From IMG/VR virus record IMGVR_UViG_3300029728_000081, positions 1-6,118 of that record: a DNA stretch of 6,118 bases; one strand, 5' to 3'. The stretch's first letter is position 1, and the number at the start of each line of letters is the position of its first letter. Position numbers and translations under genes: made by a program. This document shows, piece by piece, positions 1 to 6,118 of the stretch. The notes under the pieces were generated by a model. That model saw only the letters and a list, made by a program, of their open reading frames with translations. It was not told where the DNA came from and searched no databases. Origin of the DNA: a virus.

Positions 1-1
1 T

Positions 2-1048
2 AAGGATAGGAGGCTCCTTTACATACCTGCGAAATGTGGAAATTGTATTGAATGTCGAAAAGAAAAACAAAGAGAATGGAGAGTAAGATTAGAGGAAGAA
101 CTACGTTTGAGATATGGGTATTTTACTACATTAACTATAAGTCCAGACGGTATAAAGGAAATCGAAGAAAAAACCGGCTTAAAATGGAAAGAAAATCCAA
201 ACGAAATCGCAACAAAAGGTTTAAGACTGTTTTTGGAAAGGGTAAGAAAAGAAACGGGAAAGAGCATAAAGCATTGGTGCGTTACAGAACTGGGCGAGAA
301 AAGAGACAGAATACATTTGCACGGTATCTTCTTCGGCCAAAAATCGGCAGCACTTATAAGAAAACACTGGAAATACGGTTTTGTATTTATCGGAGATTAT
401 TGTAATAGCAGAAGTGTCAACTACATGACAAAATATATGTTAAAAGTCGATATTAAGCACCCAGAATTTAAACAAATTGTATTAGCCAGTCCCGGAATAG
501 GATCCGGGTATATGGATAGACTTGACTATCTATGGCAAAAACAAAACTACAAAAATATAAACGTAGCTACCTATACCTTTCGGAACGGAACAAAAATGGC
601 TATGCCGAAATATTATAAAAATAAAATATTTTCCGAGAAAGAAAGGGAAGTCATGTGGACTAATAACCTTAATAGAGGATTATTATGGATCTATGGAGAA
701 AAAGTAAAAGCTGACGACTGGAAAACTATAAATAACCTTAGAGAATATTGGCAAAGATATGGACGCGAAGTAATGGGAGACGATCCTATCGCTTGGAACG
801 CTATGAAAGAGCGTAGAAAAGAAGAAAAACAACGACGGGCTATCGCAGAGGCTCGAAAACATCCTGAAAAATTCAGGACGGAAAATCTAACAGAGTTGCC
901 GTTACAGGCCGATTTTCCTATGCAAGAAATAAAAACAGAATGGGATAGAGCTATAGAAAAACATATCGAAGAAAGTTTATATTTATTTGAATGTATTGAT
1001 GAACAAGACGCCTTGGACTATTACGACGACTTGAGTTATATTGAGTAA
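2..1048 (+). CDS. Replication initiator protein VP4 (rolling-circle Rep). This is the 3' portion in the window; the full gene wraps the circular junction (ATG at 5952, 374 aa total).
   Basis: The frame is open from window position 2 with no start codon. The upstream in-frame sequence at 5952..6028 (MCLYPQYFKNPKYLPNKKNKGKPPIC) joins seamlessly across the 90-nt repeat. RCR motif 1 reads YFTTLTI at about 119..139. Motif 2 (HUH) reads IHLHGIFF, with HLH at 314..322. Motif 3 reads NYMTKYMLK, with the two catalytic Tyr at 422..424 and 434..436. N-terminal CGNCIEC is a zinc-finger-like element typical of Microviridae VP4. The ORF track's start at 107 is an internal Met. Confidence 0.9.
   Translation, partial: KDRRLLYIPAKCGNCIECRKEKQREWRVRLEEELRLRYGYFTTLTISPDGIKEIEEKTGLKWKENPNEIATKGLRLFLERVRKETGKSIKHWCVTELGEKRDRIHLHGIFFGQKSAALIRKHWKYGFVFIGDYCNSRSVNYMTKYMLKVDIKHPEFKQIVLASPGIGSGYMDRLDYLWQKQNYKNINVATYTFRNGTKMAMPKYYKNKIFSEKEREVMWTNNLNRGLLWIYGEKVKADDWKTINNLREYWQRYGREVMGDDPIAWNAMKERRKEEKQRRAIAEARKHPEKFRTENLTELPLQADFPMQEIKTEWDRAIEKHIEESLYLFECIDEQDALDYYDDLSYIE
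52..405 (+). CDS. Overprinted, extremely basic (K/R-rich) 117-aa ORF in the +1 frame inside the rep gene. Possible J/VP5-like DNA-binding protein or a compositional artefact.
   Basis: An ATG-initiated 117-codon ORF sits entirely within the VP4 coding region in another frame. The product is about 40% Lys+Arg. Purine-rich (gaaaaagaa) rep sequence would produce K/R/E codons in the alternate frame by chance, so this is weak. Confidence 0.2.
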   Translation: MSKRKTKRMESKIRGRTTFEIWVFYYINYKSRRYKGNRRKNRLKMERKSKRNRNKRFKTVFGKGKKRNGKEHKALVRYRTGREKRQNTFARYLLRPKIGSTYKKTLEIRFCIYRRLL

Positions 1049-1103
1049 ACTTGAAATAATATCAGACAGGAATCAGACGATATTTTTTTTAAATGTTTAA
1101 GGC

Positions 1104-1189
1104 GGAAAACTTCGTTTTCCTTAGTCGCTTCGCTCCGGAAGAAGTACGCTCGACGGCAGAACTCGTCTCGCTGTATTCCTTGCAGGAAT
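1104..1189. promoter_or_regulatory. GC-rich structured island in the rep-distal intergenic region. Candidate origin or regulatory region.
   Basis: Hairpins GGAAAAC-ttc-GTTTTCC (1104..1120) and ATTCC-ttgca-GGAAT (1175..1189). About 53% GC across 1101..1200 in an otherwise AT-rich genome. Preceded by a T8 run at 1083..1090. Confidence 0.3.
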
Positions 1190-1235
1190 CGGGCAATAGT
1201 TAAAGATGTTAATGGCATAGGTTAAAAATGGGATT

Positions 1236-1271
1236 TTTGTTTATAAAGAGTGGGACCTCGTGTTATCTTTG
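1236..1271 (+). promoter_or_regulatory. Candidate Bacteroides-type promoter (TTTG ... TAtcTTTG) upstream of the first accessory ORF
   Basis: TAtcTTTG at 1264..1271 matches the Bacteroides -7 consensus TAnnTTTG. TTTG at 1236..1239 could be a -33 element, though the spacing of about 24 nt is longer than the canonical 19-21 nt. Confidence 0.2.
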
Positions 1272-1295
1272 TCGTGTAACAAAAAACAAACAATT

Positions 1296-1604
1296 ATGAA
1301 AAAGAGATTTATTTTACTAGCAAAAATCCATTCAAGTGGAAATTTTTTTATGAAAGTGTCTTACAATGAGAGAGATATGATGAGTCGATCAGAAATGATC
1401 TACCGTAAGGATATGGGAGACATTATAGGTCATTTCGTAGAAAATGAGACTGGACACAGATATCTCTTAAATATTAAAGATTGTGAAAATCCAGAACTAA
1501 GACCAGACATCAAATTCTGCACAATAAAAACCGCTAAATTTGCAAAGAAGGCATTAATAGAATACGACGGAACTTTAAAAATAGATATAATTAAACTTTA
1601 CTAA
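1296..1604 (+). CDS. Hypothetical protein (102 aa). The ORF track extends it to a GTG at 1260.
   Basis: ATG at 1296 (MKKRFILLAKIHSS...) preceded by A-rich leader caaaaaacaaacaatt. Stop TAA at 1602..1604. Same strand as all core genes; follows the largest intergenic region. No recognisable motif. Confidence 0.5.
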   Translation: MKKRFILLAKIHSSGNFFMKVSYNERDMMSRSEMIYRKDMGDIIGHFVENETGHRYLLNIKDCENPELRPDIKFCTIKTAKFAKKALIEYDGTLKIDIIKLY

Positions 1605-1606
1605 TC

Positions 1607-1825
1607 ATGAAAGAAGAAATCAAACAGTATTTTAAAGAGAACTGGAAAACAGTAGCAATTGCTATAGGTTCAGCTATATTATTAGCAATATCCTATATAT
1701 TCGAAGGATGCGGAAGTACTTGGAAGATCTCAGGGAATACCGTGAATGTAAACAACAAATGTAAAAATGATTCAATTGAAAATTACAATGATACCATCAA
1801 TGACGAAATACGGCAAATTCCGTAA
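1607..1825 (+). CDS. Small single-pass membrane protein (72 aa). Candidate lysis or membrane-targeting protein.
   Basis: ATG lies 2 nt after the preceding stop (ctaatcATGaaa), suggesting coupling. The predicted transmembrane helix is TVAIAIGSAILLAISYIF, flanked by charged residues (N-terminal KQYFKENWK). The C-terminal tail is polar (N/D/T-rich). Confidence 0.5.
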   Translation: MKEEIKQYFKENWKTVAIAIGSAILLAISYIFEGCGSTWKISGNTVNVNNKCKNDSIENYNDTINDEIRQIP

Positions 1826-2045
1826 AAAGGAATGGATTGGGAGTGCTAAAATACCATTCGAATCATTCAGCGAAGGAAGTTACGCTCTTATGTGGGAAGG
1901 TTTCGAATGGGACACTGGATGCGTGGTGAAGGGGTTCAGGATCGTCATGAACTGCTGCCTCTTCAAGGAAGCGGAACGACTCGAAGACGAATTACGAAAA
2001 AGTAGAATTATATTGACAAAAATTGAAGCAACTAAAAATATTTAA
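1800..2045 (+). CDS. Hypothetical protein (about 81 aa from ATG 1800). The ORF track gives 1767..2045 at 92 aa; it overlaps the preceding ORF in another frame.
   Basis: It fills the otherwise noncoding 1826..2045 gap on the gene strand. Alternative starts are 1767, 1788 and 1800. The product is W/F-rich (EWIGSAKIPFESF...MWEGFEWDTGCVVKGF). Stop TAA at 2043..2045 lies 2 nt before the next ATG. Confidence 0.35.
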   Translation: MTKYGKFRKKEWIGSAKIPFESFSEGSYALMWEGFEWDTGCVVKGFRIVMNCCLFKEAERLEDELRKSRIILTKIEATKNI

Positions 2046-2047
2046 TT

Positions 2048-2302
2048 ATGAACAGAGAAGAAGATTTGAGATGGTGTAACAGCCAAAATGTAGTAAATGT
2101 GTCGTGCATTAAAGAAGGAGAAGACGATAAATTTATTTTTACAGTAGGTCAATACGGAGTAGCTCCTTTAAAATTTGATAGTCGAGAAGAAGCAGAAAAA
2201 TACCTTGAAGAAAATTTTAAACTCACCAACTTAGAATTATCCATAATAGGGGCTATGTGCCAGAGACTTAATGAACTTAAAGAAAAACACGGAGAACAAT
2301 AA
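2048..2302 (+). CDS. Hypothetical small acidic protein (84 aa, about 17 D/E versus 11 K/R).
   Basis: ATG 2 nt after the upstream stop (tttaattATGaac). Clean ORF ending TAA 2300..2302, 12 nt before the VP1 start. No homology assignable by eye. Confidence 0.5.
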   Translation: MNREEDLRWCNSQNVVNVSCIKEGEDDKFIFTVGQYGVAPLKFDSREEAEKYLEENFKLTNLELSIIGAMCQRLNELKEKHGEQ

Positions 2303-2314
2303 AAATTTAAAATT

Positions 2315-4339
2315 ATGAAAGTAAGTATCGGAAAAAATACCCTCGGTGGGGGAAAAAAAATGATGACGCGGTTAAATAATTATAACCGTAGTACACATGA
2401 TCTTAGTAATGTAATACGAACTACTATGGCGCCAGGAGTGTTAGTGCCAACTTGGAAACAATTAGTATTACCAGGTGATACCTTTCCTATTCAAACAAGG
2501 TGTCATACCTTAACACATCCTACGATAGGACCATTATTTGGAAGTTTTAAACAGCAAAACGATTTCTTCTTCTGTCCGATAAGACTCTATAATGCTATGT
2601 TGCATAACAATGCATTAAATATAGGGTTGGACATGAAGAAGGTGAAATTCCCTTATGTAAGATTAACAACTTCAAAATATGAAGACGCCTTCATAGAAGG
2701 AAGTGGCAACACATTAAAAAAACAAATACACCCATCAAGTTTACCGGCATATCTCGGATATAAGGCACTGTCCGATATAAAATCCAACAGCGATCGAGGA
2801 CAAATACAGGTATTACCCATACTCATGTATTACGATATTTTCAAAAACTACTACGCAAACAAACAAGAAGATTCATTTTATCAAATTGTCGCTGGTGGAG
2901 ATTACCAATATTCAAGAATTAGCGCGCCCAAAAGAAAAACATTTTATCTTAATGTGCAATCCAAAGTTTCATCAAAATGGGTTGAAATTTCCAAAATAGG
3001 AGAAAATCCTCCTTCCTACTCTTATAACGTACCCGCTGGGGCAGAATATTTTGTAGGATTTGTTCTCACCTCTGACAATGAAATAGATGAAGATCATACC
3101 TATATACATATGGGAGATGTAACTTTTGACGGTAAAAGATATGGAGTAATAGAAGGGTATTTATCAGATCTATTAAATAATGGAACAATAGCAAGAAGTA
3201 CACCTGCGGCGCAGAACACGAAGGGTTATGTGATAAACGTGTCAAAAGCAGCACAAGGCACATATACTTTCTTCAGCTCAAAGAAGGTCCAAGCAAAAGA
3301 TGATAATAGCTCTTATGCAAAAATACCATTAACCGATATAGATGATATGAGAGAAGCTATATTATCAGCAGGAAAAACTGCATATGAAGCTAATAGCTCT
3401 TTTATAAACAACATATTTAAATCATTGATAAATCCCGAACCAGCAAATCCTAACAAAAACGAATACCCTGCTTGTGCAAATCCAATGGTGGGTTTAGTGT
3501 TAAAAACATATCAAAGCGATATCAATACAAACTGGGTAAACACTGAATGGATAGATGGAGAAACAGGAATCAACGCAATTACAGCAATCGACACGAGTGG
3601 AGGTAGTTTCACTTTGGACACTCTCAACCTCGCAAAAAAAGTATATACCATGCTTAATAGGATTGCCGTGAGCGACGGAAGTTATAACGCATGGATCCAA
3701 ACTGTATACACAAGTGGTGGTTTAAATCATATCGAAACTCCTATATATCTCGGAGGAAGCTCTCTTGAAATCGAATTCCAAGAAGTCATTAACAACAGCG
3801 GATCCGAAGACCAACCGTTAGGAACACTAGCGGGTAGAGGTGTTGCATCAAACCACAAGGGAGGAAATATTATATTTAAGGCCGATGAACCGGGCTATCT
3901 ATTCTGTATCACTTCTATCACACCAAGAGTCGACTATTTCCAAGGTAATGATTGGGATTTATATTTAGAAACAATGGACGACCTTCACAAACCTCAACTT
4001 GACGGTATTGGATTCCAGGATCGACTATATAGACATCTAAATGCAAGCGCAACACCTACCGATTTGGAAAAGACTATCGGAAAACAACCTGCATGGATAG
4101 AATACATGACAAATGTTAATAGAACTTATGGGAACTTTGCACTTATAGAGAATGAAGGATGGATGTGTTTAAATCGTATATTCGGAAATATAGACACATA
4201 TACTACTTATGTATTTCCTCATCTATATAATAACATCTTTGCAGACACAGAAATTACAGCACAAAATTTCTGGGTACAAATTGCCTTTAATACGAATCCT
4301 CGTAGGGTGATGTCGGCAAAAGTAATTCCTAACATTTAA
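2315..4339 (+). CDS. Major capsid protein VP1 (Microviridae F-like jelly-roll MCP), 674 aa. Alternative start ATG at 2360.
   Basis: Conserved Microviridae VP1 N-terminal signature: ...NYNRSTHDLSNVIRTTMAPGVLVPTWKQLVLPGDTF. It is the longest ORF, and its size matches the large VP1 of Alpavirinae-like microviruses. The gene order rep...VP1...VP2 is consistent. The G5A8 tract (2348..2359) immediately before ATGATG at 2360 may mark the true start. Confidence 0.93.
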   Translation: MKVSIGKNTLGGGKKMMTRLNNYNRSTHDLSNVIRTTMAPGVLVPTWKQLVLPGDTFPIQTRCHTLTHPTIGPLFGSFKQQNDFFFCPIRLYNAMLHNNALNIGLDMKKVKFPYVRLTTSKYEDAFIEGSGNTLKKQIHPSSLPAYLGYKALSDIKSNSDRGQIQVLPILMYYDIFKNYYANKQEDSFYQIVAGGDYQYSRISAPKRKTFYLNVQSKVSSKWVEISKIGENPPSYSYNVPAGAEYFVGFVLTSDNEIDEDHTYIHMGDVTFDGKRYGVIEGYLSDLLNNGTIARSTPAAQNTKGYVINVSKAAQGTYTFFSSKKVQAKDDNSSYAKIPLTDIDDMREAILSAGKTAYEANSSFINNIFKSLINPEPANPNKNEYPACANPMVGLVLKTYQSDINTNWVNTEWIDGETGINAITAIDTSGGSFTLDTLNLAKKVYTMLNRIAVSDGSYNAWIQTVYTSGGLNHIETPIYLGGSSLEIEFQEVINNSGSEDQPLGTLAGRGVASNHKGGNIIFKADEPGYLFCITSITPRVDYFQGNDWDLYLETMDDLHKPQLDGIGFQDRLYRHLNASATPTDLEKTIGKQPAWIEYMTNVNRTYGNFALIENEGWMCLNRIFGNIDTYTTYVFPHLYNNIFADTEITAQNFWVQIAFNTNPRRVMSAKVIPNI

Positions 4340-4350
4340 TATTTACAATT

Positions 4351-4686
4351 ATGATTAAACCAAAGTTTTTTCCAAAACCTCCAAAAACAAATTATGAATT
4401 TCAAGATGGAGAAAGTATTGAAAACAAAGTACGACGAATCACTGAGAACAATGAACCTATCACCGACGGAGCTCCAATTATCTATACCAATAGAGAAGAT
4501 GGAGTCCTTCCGGCTTACAATATTAGAACAGATCGTTGGGAAGTAGCTCAGCAAGCAATGGACGCTGTCAACCAAGCTAATTTAGCGAAATCCAAAAATT
4601 ACGGAAAAATAGAACAACAAGAACAGAATGCCCTCGATTCGAAGGAAGTAGGAGACACTTCTTCGCAGCAGGAATCGGCGGGATAA
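4351..4686 (+). CDS. Hypothetical protein (111 aa) between VP1 and VP2. By position, possibly a VP3-like internal scaffolding protein.
   Basis: ATG 11 nt after the VP1 stop. Pro/Lys-rich N-terminus (MIKPKFFPKPPK). Central block ITDGAPIIYTNREDGVLPAYNIRTDRWEVAQQAMDAV. Acidic Q/E/S-rich C-terminus. Followed by a strong hairpin plus T-run. Confidence 0.55.
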   Translation: MIKPKFFPKPPKTNYEFQDGESIENKVRRITENNEPITDGAPIIYTNREDGVLPAYNIRTDRWEVAQQAMDAVNQANLAKSKNYGKIEQQEQNALDSKEVGDTSSQQESAG

Positions 4687-4705
4687 ACCGCACATCTAAG
4701 AGGCT

Positions 4706-4742
4706 GGGAGTTAGAGATTTAATCTCTACTCCCTCCATTTTT
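4706..4742 (+). terminator. Putative rho-independent terminator
   Basis: GGGAG(t)TAGAGAT-tta-ATCTCTACTCCC forms a 12-bp stem with a one-nt bulge (4706..4733). It is followed by tccaTTTTT (T-run 4738..4742) and lies 20 nt after the stop of the 111-aa ORF. Confidence 0.5.
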
Positions 4743-4789
4743 CACAAAATGGTACGCATGTAGCATATATTATCTAGTAATATGTATAA

Positions 4790-4809
4790 CCCTTGTAAAA
4801 TTACAAGGG
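4790..4809. promoter_or_regulatory. Perfect 9-bp inverted repeat CCCTTGTAA-aa-TTACAAGGG, about 25 nt upstream of the VP2 start
   Basis: Read directly from the sequence. No T-run follows it, so it is not a classic terminator. It could be a regulatory or processing hairpin in the VP2 leader. Confidence 0.35.
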
Positions 4810-4834
4810 CGAAGAATTAAACAAATAGAATAAT

Positions 4835-5950
4835 ATGGGATTTAAGGAATCATTTATAAGTGGATTAGGATCCTCAGCAGCAAGCACAGGAGTAGGAGCC
4901 ATCGGAAATTTGATGAGCCAAGCTCTTGGTTTAAGCTGGTCTCCTCAAAAAGCCATGAAAGAACAATGGAAATATAACAAAAATATCATGGCTCTGCAAA
5001 ACAAATATCAGCAAGAAGCAGCAGCTCAATCTCAACAATATGCGAAGGATTATTGGGATTATACTAATACGGAAAATCAAATCAAACATCTGAAAAATGC
5101 CGGTCTAAATATCGGATTAATGTATGGACAGAGTGGAGCCGGAGGTATGGGTGCAAGTGGCGGAGCTCACCAATCCGCACCAGAACAGCCACAAGGTAAT
5201 CCAGTAGGTATGGCATTACAAGTGCAACAACTTGAACAGCAAGAGAGGATGAACAATGCCCAAATAGCACTAGCGGAAGCACAAGCTGAGAAGGCGAAGG
5301 CGGAAGCCTCAAAAATCGGAGGTGTTGATATTCAAGAGAGTCTTGCACGAATTGAAAATTTATTAGCCGGAGCTGAAAAATCAAGAAAAGAAGGAAATGT
5401 ATTTGAAGCAACAGTAGGACTCGTTGAAGCTCAAAAAAATTTGACCCAAAAATTAGAGGATAAAACATATTGGGAAACGGAACTGGCAAAGGCAAGGACA
5501 GGAACCGAGCAAGAACAGAAGGAAAATCTAAAAGTATTGCGGCAAAATATGATCAACGAAGGTTTTAAAATCCTCGAAGAATGGAATAATCTTAAAAAGG
5601 ATGGACGAGCTAAAGATATTATGAATTACATCAATGGCGCAAGCATGAATGAGCAAATTAGAGCATTTGCTTTAAACAACGCAAGAACAGTGGCAGAAAC
5701 TGCATTAGATAACGCAAAGAACAAACTAACAGCTCAACAAATTAACACGTTAGCTCGTGAAGAACAATTACTCATAGAACGTGCTGTCTCAGAAAAATGG
5801 GATAGAGAAACGCGCCGGCGCCAAGTTGAAGCTTTTGAAAAACGAGTACACGACCAAAATGTAAACGAAAAATGGGGTCTCGTAAATGAAGATATTAAAA
5901 TAATTTCAGATAGCGCATTAAAAGCAATGGATACCTTAATACCTTGGTAA
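4835..5950 (+). CDS. Minor capsid / DNA pilot protein VP2 (371 aa)
   Basis: Gly/Ser/Ala-rich N-terminus (GLGSSAASTGVGAIGNLMSQALGLSW). Conserved VP2-type block NKNIMALQNKYQQEAAAQSQQYAKDYWDYTNTENQIKHLKNAGLNIGLMYG, followed by a Gly-rich stretch and a long Q/A/E/K-rich predicted coiled coil. It sits immediately upstream of rep, whose ATG is 1 nt after the VP2 stop. Confidence 0.85.
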   Translation: MGFKESFISGLGSSAASTGVGAIGNLMSQALGLSWSPQKAMKEQWKYNKNIMALQNKYQQEAAAQSQQYAKDYWDYTNTENQIKHLKNAGLNIGLMYGQSGAGGMGASGGAHQSAPEQPQGNPVGMALQVQQLEQQERMNNAQIALAEAQAEKAKAEASKIGGVDIQESLARIENLLAGAEKSRKEGNVFEATVGLVEAQKNLTQKLEDKTYWETELAKARTGTEQEQKENLKVLRQNMINEGFKILEEWNNLKKDGRAKDIMNYINGASMNEQIRAFALNNARTVAETALDNAKNKLTAQQINTLAREEQLLIERAVSEKWDRETRRRQVEAFEKRVHDQNVNEKWGLVNEDIKIISDSALKAMDTLIPW

Positions 5951-5951
5951 T

Positions 5952-6118
5952 ATGTGTCTATATCCTCAATATTTCAAAAATCCAAAGTATTTACCTAATA
6001 AGAAAAATAAAGGAAAACCTCCTATCTGTAAGGATAGGAGGCTCCTTTACATACCTGCGAAATGTGGAAATTGTATTGAATGTCGAAAAGAAAAACAAAG
6101 AGAATGGAGAGTAAGATT
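5952..6118 (+). CDS. Replication initiator VP4, 5' portion (truncated by the window end; continues as 1..1048 through the circular junction)
   Basis: ATG at 5952, 1 nt after the VP2 stop. The frame is continuous into the terminal repeat. MCLYPQYFKNPKY...IPAKCGNCIECRKEKQREW is the typical Microviridae VP4 N-terminus. Confidence 0.85.
   Translation, partial: MCLYPQYFKNPKYLPNKKNKGKPPICKDRRLLYIPAKCGNCIECRKEKQREWRVR
6029..6118. repeat. Terminal redundancy: exact 90-nt copy of 1..90, marking a circular genome of about 6,028 nt
   Basis: 1..90 and 6029..6118 are identical by direct comparison. An ORF (rep) runs through the junction in frame. Confidence 0.95.

Follow-up and report, generated by a model that had tools for sequence, protein, structure and literature searches.

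Microviruses rank with the most abundant phages in the human gut, and we know of no exit route described for those outside the phiX174 group. Protein E of phiX174 (Bullavirinae), an inhibitor of MraY, is an uncleaved membrane protein with an active transmembrane (TM) helix that carries an essential Pro, and its gene lies wholly inside gene D. The colicin lysis proteins, or bacteriocin release proteins (BRPs; ColE1 Kil, ColE7 Cel and cloacin DF13 BRP), are lipoprotein precursors of 45-52 amino acids with a short, polar, unstructured mature peptide of ~28-35 residues. The o-spanin Rz1 is a very small outer-membrane lipoprotein (mature part ~40 residues) with a single Cys forming intermolecular disulfides, and T5 Llp has a folded 61-residue domain with an internal disulfide. 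Here we analyzed a small open reading frame (ORF), hereafter the target, at positions 1607 to 1825 of a viral DNA stretch of 6,118 nucleotides (IMG/VR record IMGVR_UViG_3300029728_000081, positions 1 to 6,118; this whole stretch is called the window). The target opens with ATG at 1607, closes with TAA at 1823-1825 and encodes the 72-residue protein MKEEIKQYFKENWKTVAIAIGSAILLAISYIFEGCGSTWKISGNTVNVNNKCKNDSIENYNDTINDEIRQIP, which a preliminary description had proposed as a single-TM lysis protein. Judged by its sequence, the product is better described as a small lipoprotein precursor with a plausible role in lysis, and we give a probability of roughly 0.38 to its being a small lipoprotein that acts in lysis or release. 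The parts of the gene are as follows.

1607..1825, + strand: target small ORF, 72 codons and TAA
1607..1648, + strand: codons 1-14, MKEEIKQYFKENWK, charged amphipathic N-region, predicted cytoplasmic
1649..1708, + strand: codons 15-34, TVAIAIGSAILLAISYIF-EG, hydrophobic core with lipobox-like F-E-G; the "TM helix" of the preliminary description
1709..1711, + strand: codon 35, TGC, the invariant Cys35; proposed site of lipidation and cleavage, +1 of the mature peptide
1709..1762, + strand: codons 35-52, CGSTWKISGNTVNVNNKC, conserved mature-peptide core with a predicted beta-hairpin
1767..1825, + strand: dual-coding overlap of 59 nucleotides, the 3' end of the target (last 19 codons) and the start of the downstream gene d92 in the +1 frame
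1769..1777, + strand: sequon 1, D55-S-I, codons 55-57, matching D-[ST]-[ALVIMT]; inside the gene overlap
1790..1798, + strand: sequon 2, D62-T-I, codons 62-64, with D-[ST]-[ILV] kept in 120/120 close relatives; inside the gene overlap

As far as its sequence tells, the target's architecture is compatible with a small lipoprotein of the BRP type. Like the BRPs, it would be a tiny lipoprotein precursor with a short, polar, unstructured mature peptide (38 residues), and it belongs to a small selfish replicon that exports a macromolecular product from a Gram-negative cell. The BRP signal peptide is said, in the reviews of van der Wal, Luirink and Oudega, to be stable and to contribute to lethality, and an active signal peptide of this kind would fit the strongly constrained N-region of the target. 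The ColE7 lysis gene is the subject of PMC2896534. Unlike the BRPs of Enterobacteria, to which it has no sequence similarity and, although Pfam holds a model for that family, no Pfam match at E<=0.1, the target belongs to a Bacteroidota setting. Its amphipathic N-region is long and conserved, and its mature peptide combines a conserved hairpin motif with O-glycosylation sequons. Moreover, BRPs act through outer-membrane phospholipase A and cause quasi-lysis, a route that is not established for virions of 25-30 nm passing through peptidoglycan.

phiX174 E comes from the same virus order and likewise from a very small genome without a muralytic enzyme; it is also one small protein with a single N-terminal hydrophobic helix and with overlapping-gene coding nearby. 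In contrast to E, the target shows its weakest constraint in the helix, which has no Pro and runs into a lipobox-like Cys, and the gene is free-standing except for its last 19 codons; homology with E was not found among Pfam or PHROG matches. T5 Llp and phi80/N15 Cor are, according to PMC9586334 and a 2026 FhuA:Llp preprint, small phage-encoded, periplasm-facing lipoproteins acting on the host envelope, as the target is predicted to be. The target differs from them in its 38 mostly disordered residues, its single free Cys and its lack of co-variation with the receptor-binding capsid, and no homology to Llp or Cor was detected in Pfam, PHROGs or PDB sequences. Spanins of the Rz1 or gp11 (u-spanin) kind resemble the predicted target product as very small lipoproteins with a single Cys, encoded by a gene overlapping a neighbor in another frame, and one family member gave a weak PHROG match to "Rz-like spanin" (E 0.035, not significant). 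Unlike the spanins, the target has no TM-anchored i-spanin partner, no C-terminal TM helix and no accompanying endolysin or holin, and its tail is polar and disordered; its peptide is Asn-rich rather than Pro-rich, and the overlapping neighbor d92 is a predicted cytoplasmic alpha/beta protein. A holin-endolysin system is not seen either, as no endolysin or peptidase was detected among the window ORFs. By analogy, the target would in its working be most like a colicin-type lysis lipoprotein or an exclusion lipoprotein of the Llp/Cor type, although the collections searched assign it to no described family. We found no description of this protein in the literature on microvirus lysis and lipoproteins; judged by the literature searched, it would be the first representative in Microviridae of the envelope-acting mini-lipoproteins encoded by phages or plasmids, with features specific to Bacteroidota.

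The target is a real, conserved gene, because it has homologs in 543 clusters at 90% identity, shows purifying selection specific to its frame and keeps a fixed synteny. Nearly all the clustered homologs are 72 amino acids long, and many come from contigs of ~6 kb. Over codons 1-50 in 22 IMG/VR relatives, variation is mostly synonymous, with a ratio of nonsynonymous to synonymous differences (pN/pS) of 0.23 in the target frame versus 0.50 and 1.05 in the other frames; the value in a second set of 16 genomes is 0.24. All ~30 genomes of the clade carry the gene, which is strongly conserved among them. It stands at the same place in every genome with at least 60% capsid identity, so that the lack of a syntenic ORF in relatives, which the preliminary description would have taken as a refutation, is not observed, and homologs down to 33% identity keep the order Rep, small ORFs, target gene, overlapping ~85-residue ORF, ~80-residue ORF and capsid. 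Its position in the accessory, non-structural block and its tight coupling to the upstream ORF, both claimed earlier, also hold, the gap between the upstream stop codon (1602-1604) and the target ATG being only 2 nucleotides. No other + strand ORF of the window has a hydrophobic segment. Nothing significant was returned for the window protein by Pfam (E<=0.1), PHROGs, NCBIfam, PADLOC or PDB sequences, and a tblastn search of 50,697 deposited phage genomes gave no match. The weak PHROG matches (all E>0.009) were rejected as noise, being to unrelated families and located over the hydrophobic region; they include phrog_557 "outer membrane protein" for the window protein (E 0.013, non-significant) and, for relatives, "holin" (0.088) and "secreted protein" (0.015) besides the spanin match mentioned above.

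The protein reads as a lipoprotein precursor because the Cys and a small residue before it are kept, canonical lipoboxes occur in distant homologs, and the strongest constraint falls just after the Cys. Cys35 is present in 120/120 close relatives, preceded by Gly (83) or Ser (37) at -1 and with F/I/L/M/V at -3, and an equivalent Cys is invariant in distant homologs, in Dulem virus 224 and Dulem virus 213 and in other families of shared architecture; a small -1 residue before an invariant +1 Cys is what a lipoprotein signal calls for, and one distant homolog has Asn at -1. The layout is also that of a lipoprotein signal, with a charged n-region, an h-region at residues 15-32 and a Cys at position 35, within the ~15-35 residues from the start where it is expected. 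Residues 1-14 hold 4 Lys and 3 Glu (net +1). The single hydrophobic stretch, residues 15-32/33, reaches a maximum Kyte-Doolittle(19) value of 1.95 and a position-independent Hessa-scale sum of +2.0 kcal/mol, and is thus moderately hydrophobic. AlphaFold2 places helices at residues 3-11 and 13-31, with a predicted local distance difference test (pLDDT) score of 85-90, and the second helix ends exactly at F-E-G-C-G. The charged N-terminus and one hydrophobic helix of the preliminary description are therefore confirmed. Selection is uneven along the protein. The N-region (pN/pS 0.04, 93% amino acid identity in the clade) and the first 18 mature residues, CGSTWKISGNTVNVNNKC (pN/pS 0.06, 92% identity), are the most constrained segments of the genome, compared with 0.50 for the capsid and 0.16 for Rep, and the hydrophobic core is the least constrained part of the target protein (pN/pS 0.42). 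The moderate hydrophobicity, the weakest constraint in the core and the end of the predicted helix all agree with the lipoprotein reading. By contrast, the single-TM lysis protein or holin architecture proposed earlier is not supported, given the invariant Cys with its small -1 residue, the distant lipoboxes and the constraint after the Cys; nor did the genome show an endolysin, the protein any similarity to phiX174 E or its helix a Pro.

Distant relatives point the same way. A profile search of 1.84 billion representative proteins returned only nine clusters, the most distant homologs found by HMMER, which share little with the window protein except that a K-rich N-region and a hydrophobic core lead to a small residue and C-G-S-[TA]-W-x-[IL]-x-x-N; their lipoboxes include VLSAC, TIIGC and VTGSC. 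Scanning for architecture and motif at the same locus finds copies that sequence searches miss. Rule-conforming lipoboxes occur in the copies of Dulem virus 224 (...VVIGIQS|CGSTWNLKDNQIKV; IQS|CGSTW) and Dulem virus 213 (...TIVLVQS|CISSWNVNKN...NDSTNFKIELKK; VQS|CISSW). In about half of 58 contigs with 40-46% capsid identity, an ORF of 63-72 amino acids sits 250-500 nucleotides upstream of the capsid gene, built of a K-rich N-region, a hydrophobic core, LQAC/LGGC/AQSC/ITGC/GVSC/VQSC and then a tail of 34-40 residues rich in Asn, Gln, Ser and Thr. One of these low-identity branches alone accounts for 789 database clusters, and the superfamily comprises more than 1,300 across two sampled branches. 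A local jackhmmer search ties the window protein to the Dulem, LGGC and VQSC types, a result that is suggestive given the small database and hydrophobic sequences. As a control, the detector fired 60 times on coding strands (in 59/90 genomes, always at the target locus) versus 7 times in 5,603 minus-strand segments, and those seven firings are Cys-rich junk. The features conserved across the whole set, namely an N-terminus resembling an export signal, a small residue followed by Cys, and a short polar peptide, are at the sequence level the signature of a signal-peptidase-II lipoprotein and not of a membrane-embedded effector. In several branches (L025 5273-5479, L032 5621-5827, P0124 and the VQSC-type proteins) the conserved Cys is preceded, at a distance of 3-4 residues, by another Cys (IISCQGC, TLCAGC, TLCVQSC), so that there are either two lipoboxes to choose from or a pair resembling CxxC where the membrane ends.

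The predicted mature peptide is ~38 amino acids long and, from its sequence context, lipid-anchored. In its conserved core, G36, S37, W39, G43, N44, T45, N47 and V48 are invariant. AlphaFold2 models the mature part as a low-confidence hairpin (strands 37-42 and 45-50) followed by a disordered tail, with pLDDT <55. A hairpin disulfide between Cys35 and Cys52 was considered as the reason for the conservation of Cys35 and rejected, since Cys52 is absent from P0128, P0129, Dulem 213 and all VQSC/LGGC/LQAC-type families, which keep the first Cys. Surface export of Bacteroidota lipoproteins is signaled by C-x-K-(D/E)2, or by S-D-D-D-D in B. fragilis (PMC5080379). Acidic residues at +2 to +8 occur in 0/120 and 0/118 members, the window's mature N-terminus being CGSTWKISG. 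With no such signal, the predicted peptide should therefore stay on the periplasmic side.

The tail is also probably O-glycosylated by the host at D-S-I and D-T-I, to judge from its motifs. The Bacteroidota sequon D-[ST]-[ALVIMT] is used in non-cytoplasmic proteins only and is sufficient when engineered in (PMC12871550). At least one sequon is found in 120/120 members, in the predicted periplasmic tail. Among 10 tail clusters that are <50% identical to one another, 9 carry a sequon versus 1.16 expected by shuffling, a comparison that yields no true probability, as the clusters are related. The D-S-T triplet is kept in distant branches without gene overlap and is therefore a protein-level feature of the superfamily. 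For the same superfamily we rejected the idea that D-[ST]-x is a mere by-product of the downstream start codon (aATGat = Asn-Asp), which remains a confounder in the window family.

This confounder arises from d92, which starts at an ATG (1767) lying within the target's Asn54-Asp55 codons (aATGat). From about codon 50 onward, the target is frozen at third codon positions but varies at first positions, and the rate of synonymous differences in codons 50-72 is 0.0. Within the overlap, pN/pS is 0.10 for d92 versus 3.09 for the target, where pS is 0.045. The frozen third positions and the zero synonymous rate are explained by the dominance of the d92 frame over selection in the overlap. d92 itself has 111 homologous clusters and a pN/pS of 0.12, and gene callers are divided over its start, between ATG 1767 (92 amino acids) and ATG 1788 (85 amino acids). 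Its AlphaFold2 model is a small alpha/beta protein (pLDDT 75), predicted cytoplasmic, for which a fold search gave no significant structural match, the best being its own homolog in mar60. A signal peptide, TM helix or other export signal was not found in d92. Since it has neither an export signal or TM helix nor a significant fold match, d92 was rejected as a functional partner, whether a spanin or an enzyme.

If the target is a lipoprotein that acts in lysis or release, the precursor would enter the inner membrane through Sec, Cys35 would be diacylglycerol-modified, and signal peptidase II would remove the signal peptide, leaving a lipid-anchored peptide of 38 residues (CGSTWKISGNTVNVNNKC...) on the periplasmic side. 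More speculatively, this peptide would be the phage's lysis or release effector, maybe together with the conserved N-terminal or signal-peptide part, and would attack a conserved envelope target from the periplasmic face. The target is a lysis candidate because it is the sole membrane-targeted product of the genome, because the genome has no recognizable hydrolase and because the gene is universal and strongly constrained in the clade. In addition, it does not co-vary with the receptor-binding capsid, its mature core being under much stronger constraint (pN/pS 0.06 versus 0.50). Neither a peptidoglycan hydrolase nor another recognizable lysis gene was detected among the window ORFs by Pfam, PHROGs or NCBIfam, and a hidden E-like overlapping lysis gene is not indicated, as the capsid, pilot, p111 and d84 genes contain no window of suppressed synonymous change. 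Among the relatives, an M15 peptidase was found only in phiHBP1 and L055, both of which lack the target ORF; with only two M15 genomes, this exclusive pattern of M15 or lipoprotein is anecdotal.

Several observations weigh against this reading. The target gene and M15 are both missing from mar60, from the Phocaeicola prophage L030 and from several complete relatives of 4.7-5.7 kb, and therefore another lysis route exists in the wider clade; the candidacy for lysis raised in the preliminary description remains legitimate for a genome whose only membrane-targeted product is the target and which has no recognizable hydrolase, and such complete relatives count against it. The window lipobox, F-E-G-C, violates the standard rules by a non-canonical Glu at -2 (in 108/120 members), so that signal-peptidase-II processing of the window's own family is not assured: the PROSITE-type lipobox {DERK}(6)-[LIVMFWSTAG](2)-[LIVMFYSTAGCQ]-[AGS]-C is failed by the window's I-F-E-G-C and passed by only 8/120 close relatives, whereas the sequences of distant homologs and sister families (VLSAC, TIIGC, VTGSC, IQSC, VQSC, LQAC, LGGC) conform to it or come close. 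Gln, one base change from Glu, is common at -2 in the sister branches of the superfamily. The constraint on the N-region is far above the need of a disposable signal peptide and fits either an uncleaved protein or an N-region or signal peptide with a function of its own. The sequons of the window family lie within the overlap, where the d92 frame dominates, so their conservation there is confounded. Finally, the target protein matches no known lysis family.

Extending the proposal, the whole unannotated superfamily of mini-lipoproteins, probably O-glycosylated, could be the missing lysis effector of the abundant Bacteroidales-infecting gut microviruses, an idea we put forward tentatively and regard as somewhat doubtful. 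Its members would act from the periplasmic face on a conserved envelope target, with a signal peptide that is possibly functional and related to "smalltalk". A vague "small TM ORF" has in any case taken definite shape: hundreds of gut microvirus genomes encode, at a fixed locus, a conserved lipoprotein-like peptide whose ORFs at present bear only the label of hypothetical proteins. It carries defined predictions: the processing site Cys35, the topology, candidate glycosylation sites and two sharply constrained segments. If it is a lysis effector, its point of attack would expose a new weak spot of the Bacteroidales envelope, as meant by the term "protein antibiotic", and lipoprotein-type single-gene lysis would join phiX174 E, Q-beta A2, LysM and MS2 L as a further mechanistic class.

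The alternative that survives best, though we consider it unlikely, is superinfection exclusion or receptor masking, in which a lipopeptide in the inner leaflet of the outer membrane would inactivate the phage receptor from the periplasmic side. The model is the action of T5 Llp and phi80/N15 Cor on the TonB-dependent transporter FhuA, and the effect would be to block superinfection and shield progeny from cell debris; if it held here, it would be the first such function in Microviridae. The target's predicted architecture, a small periplasm-facing lipoprotein, is the same, and Llp is described as a small lipoprotein binding FhuA from the inner leaflet of the outer membrane. In Bacteroides the outer membrane is dominated by lipoproteins and by TonB-dependent transporters of the SusC-like kind (PMC4319957), and phiHBP1 resistance in B. 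fragilis partly involved phase-variable susC/susD loci (PMC13064476). The target is also found two genes upstream of the gene for the receptor-binding protein, the capsid gene, and is dispensable in some lineages (mar60, L030 and small complete genomes), as an accessory function would be. A receptor-specific blocker would be expected to diverge with receptor usage, yet genomes whose capsids share only 55% identity (pN/pS 0.50) have a mature core of 92% identity (0.06), and no co-variation with the receptor-binding capsid is seen. Moreover, the only integrated prophage among the relatives, where exclusion pays most, lacks the gene, no copy was found in 185,579 species genomes, and the 38-residue mature part is mostly disordered, without a globular fold and without a Pfam or PHROG family.

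Another role at the envelope, such as host surface or vesicle biology, the countering of an envelope-associated defence or signaling by a micro-peptide related to smalltalk, is in our view decidedly unlikely. Its main attraction is the NCBIfam family NF033879, "smalltalk protein" (29 positions), a ~30-residue Bacteroides micro-protein for which a B. thetaiotaomicron locus is listed in PMC10434189. Among the VQSC-type sister lipoproteins (L056, L057, L060, L067, L070-L076 and L089; proteins P0130-P0249), 21/22 match it just below the cutoff (best 23.4 vs 24.7 bits), and the alignment always covers the N-region, the hydrophobic core and Q-S-C. The strong constraint on the N-region and the absence of the gene from some complete relatives would also suit such a role. 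However, all sister scores stay below the 24.7 cutoff, smalltalk ends where the phage mature peptide begins, and the window protein itself has no match to NF033879 at E<=0.1; smalltalk is itself without known function, and PADLOC gave no matches. A 6-kb genome, moreover, rarely holds non-essential genes, yet the target is universal in the ~30 genomes of the clade.

Still less credit, to the point of being improbable, goes to an uncleaved N-in/C-out single-pass protein, a single-gene lysis protein or holin-like pore for which Cys-Gly-Ser-Thr-Trp would be only a juxtamembrane motif. A helix of ~18 residues with aromatic flanks (W13; Y30, W39) does look like a true TM helix, the constrained cytoplasmic N-region (pN/pS 0.04) makes more sense if it is kept in the working protein, Glu at -2 is unfavorable for signal peptidase II, and the target is the genome's only membrane protein. 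The one feature that the whole superfamily shares, however, is a Cys that closes the hydrophobic stretch behind a small residue, in many cases as part of a canonical lipobox. Selection is weakest on the core (0.42), which is also only marginally hydrophobic, whereas the function of phiX174 E resides in its TM helix; a holin would have no endolysin to release, similarity to E is lacking, and Pro occurs only at residue 72. That the ORF stands in AT-rich DNA by chance, a reading suggested by the shortness (72 codons) and the lack of database annotation, is refuted by the 543 clusters of conserved length, the frame-specific selection and the synteny down to 33% identity, and its probability is practically nil.

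The whole window is a complete microvirus genome, with all genes on the + strand. Its first 90 nucleotides (1-90) are identical to its last 90 (6029-6118), and it is therefore a circular genome of 6,028 nucleotides with an assembly overlap. The genes around the target are the following.

Across the window ends (junction), + strand: Rep (Pfam REP_ORF2-G2P), 374 amino acids in the identical contigs L093-L096
1293..1604, + strand: upstream ORF of ~103 amino acids, stop codon 1602-1604, 2 nucleotides before the target ATG
1767..2045, + strand: d92, gene of 92 amino acids, downstream of the target and overlapping its 3' end
2048-2302, + strand: d84, ORF of 84 amino acids between d92 and the capsid gene
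2315-4339, + strand: major capsid protein, Phage_F
4351-4686, + strand: p111, ORF of 111 amino acids 3' of the capsid gene
4835-5950, + strand: pilot protein

Since Rep crosses the junction, the 313-residue "Rep" ORF at 107-1048 is its C-terminal part only. The upstream ORF of ~103 amino acids is fast-evolving (36% amino acid identity and pN/pS 0.60 within the clade). In most of the relatives looked at, mar60 and the prophage among them, the capsid gene is immediately preceded by d84, which has the motif GEDDK-[FY]-I-[FI]-T-[VC]-G, and in nearly all it is followed by p111; neither of these two core genes of the clade carries an annotation. Seven relatives (L048, L052, L068, L080, L082, L085 and L090) are complete circular genomes of only 4.7-5.7 kb with terminal repeats of 107-127 nucleotides and have no lipoprotein-type ORF or M15.

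The host is very probably a member of Bacteroidales, for example a gut Phocaeicola or Bacteroides, because the nearest microvirus groups adjoin phiHBP1 and a Phocaeicola metagenome-assembled genome (MAG) holds a related prophage. The exact target protein is present in human gut metagenomes, and the closest deposited genomes are fecal microviruses of lemurs, rodents and tortoises (Dulem, bajarodmic and Tortoise viruses), ~70% identical and in core genes only. phiHBP1, the first isolated microvirus of Bacteroides fragilis, is placed next to the Dulem/bajarodmic/Tortoise groups (PMC13064476); this first Bacteroides-infecting isolate, reported in 2025, has a different gene set that includes the M15 peptidase. 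A scan of the 185,579 species genomes for target protein copies found none, and the host signal came from the capsid protein. The prophage, L030, is an integrated microvirus on the Phocaeicola MAG contig CAZAUU010000012.1 (about 3090-8470) with a capsid 57% identical, flanked by a 915-residue surface-lipoprotein gene (lipobox FTSC, then SDYDDD) and upp. It has d84, capsid, p111, pilot and Rep and lacks the lipoprotein gene, d92 and the upstream ORF.

A very basic ORF of 117 amino acids lies at window 52-405 (+) in an alternative frame within the Rep coding region, and is probably no gene because synonymous change in that part of Rep is not suppressed. Synonymous change is strongly suppressed in Rep codons 247-281 (window 845-949; 0.06 vs 0.39 gene-wide), and no + strand ORF explains this. 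Inside the suppressed stretch are CCTGAA-AAA-TTCAGG at 863-877, a 6-bp stem with a loop of 3 nucleotides, and an inverted repeat of 8 nucleotides, GGAAAATC/GATTTTCC, at 880-887 and 911-918. The stretch could be a candidate replication origin or another cis element inside Rep. Similarly, synonymous variation is suppressed over the last 17 codons of d92 (window 1992-2042; 0.09 vs 0.35), just upstream of the next ATG at 2048, and this segment may be a translation-initiation or other regulatory element.

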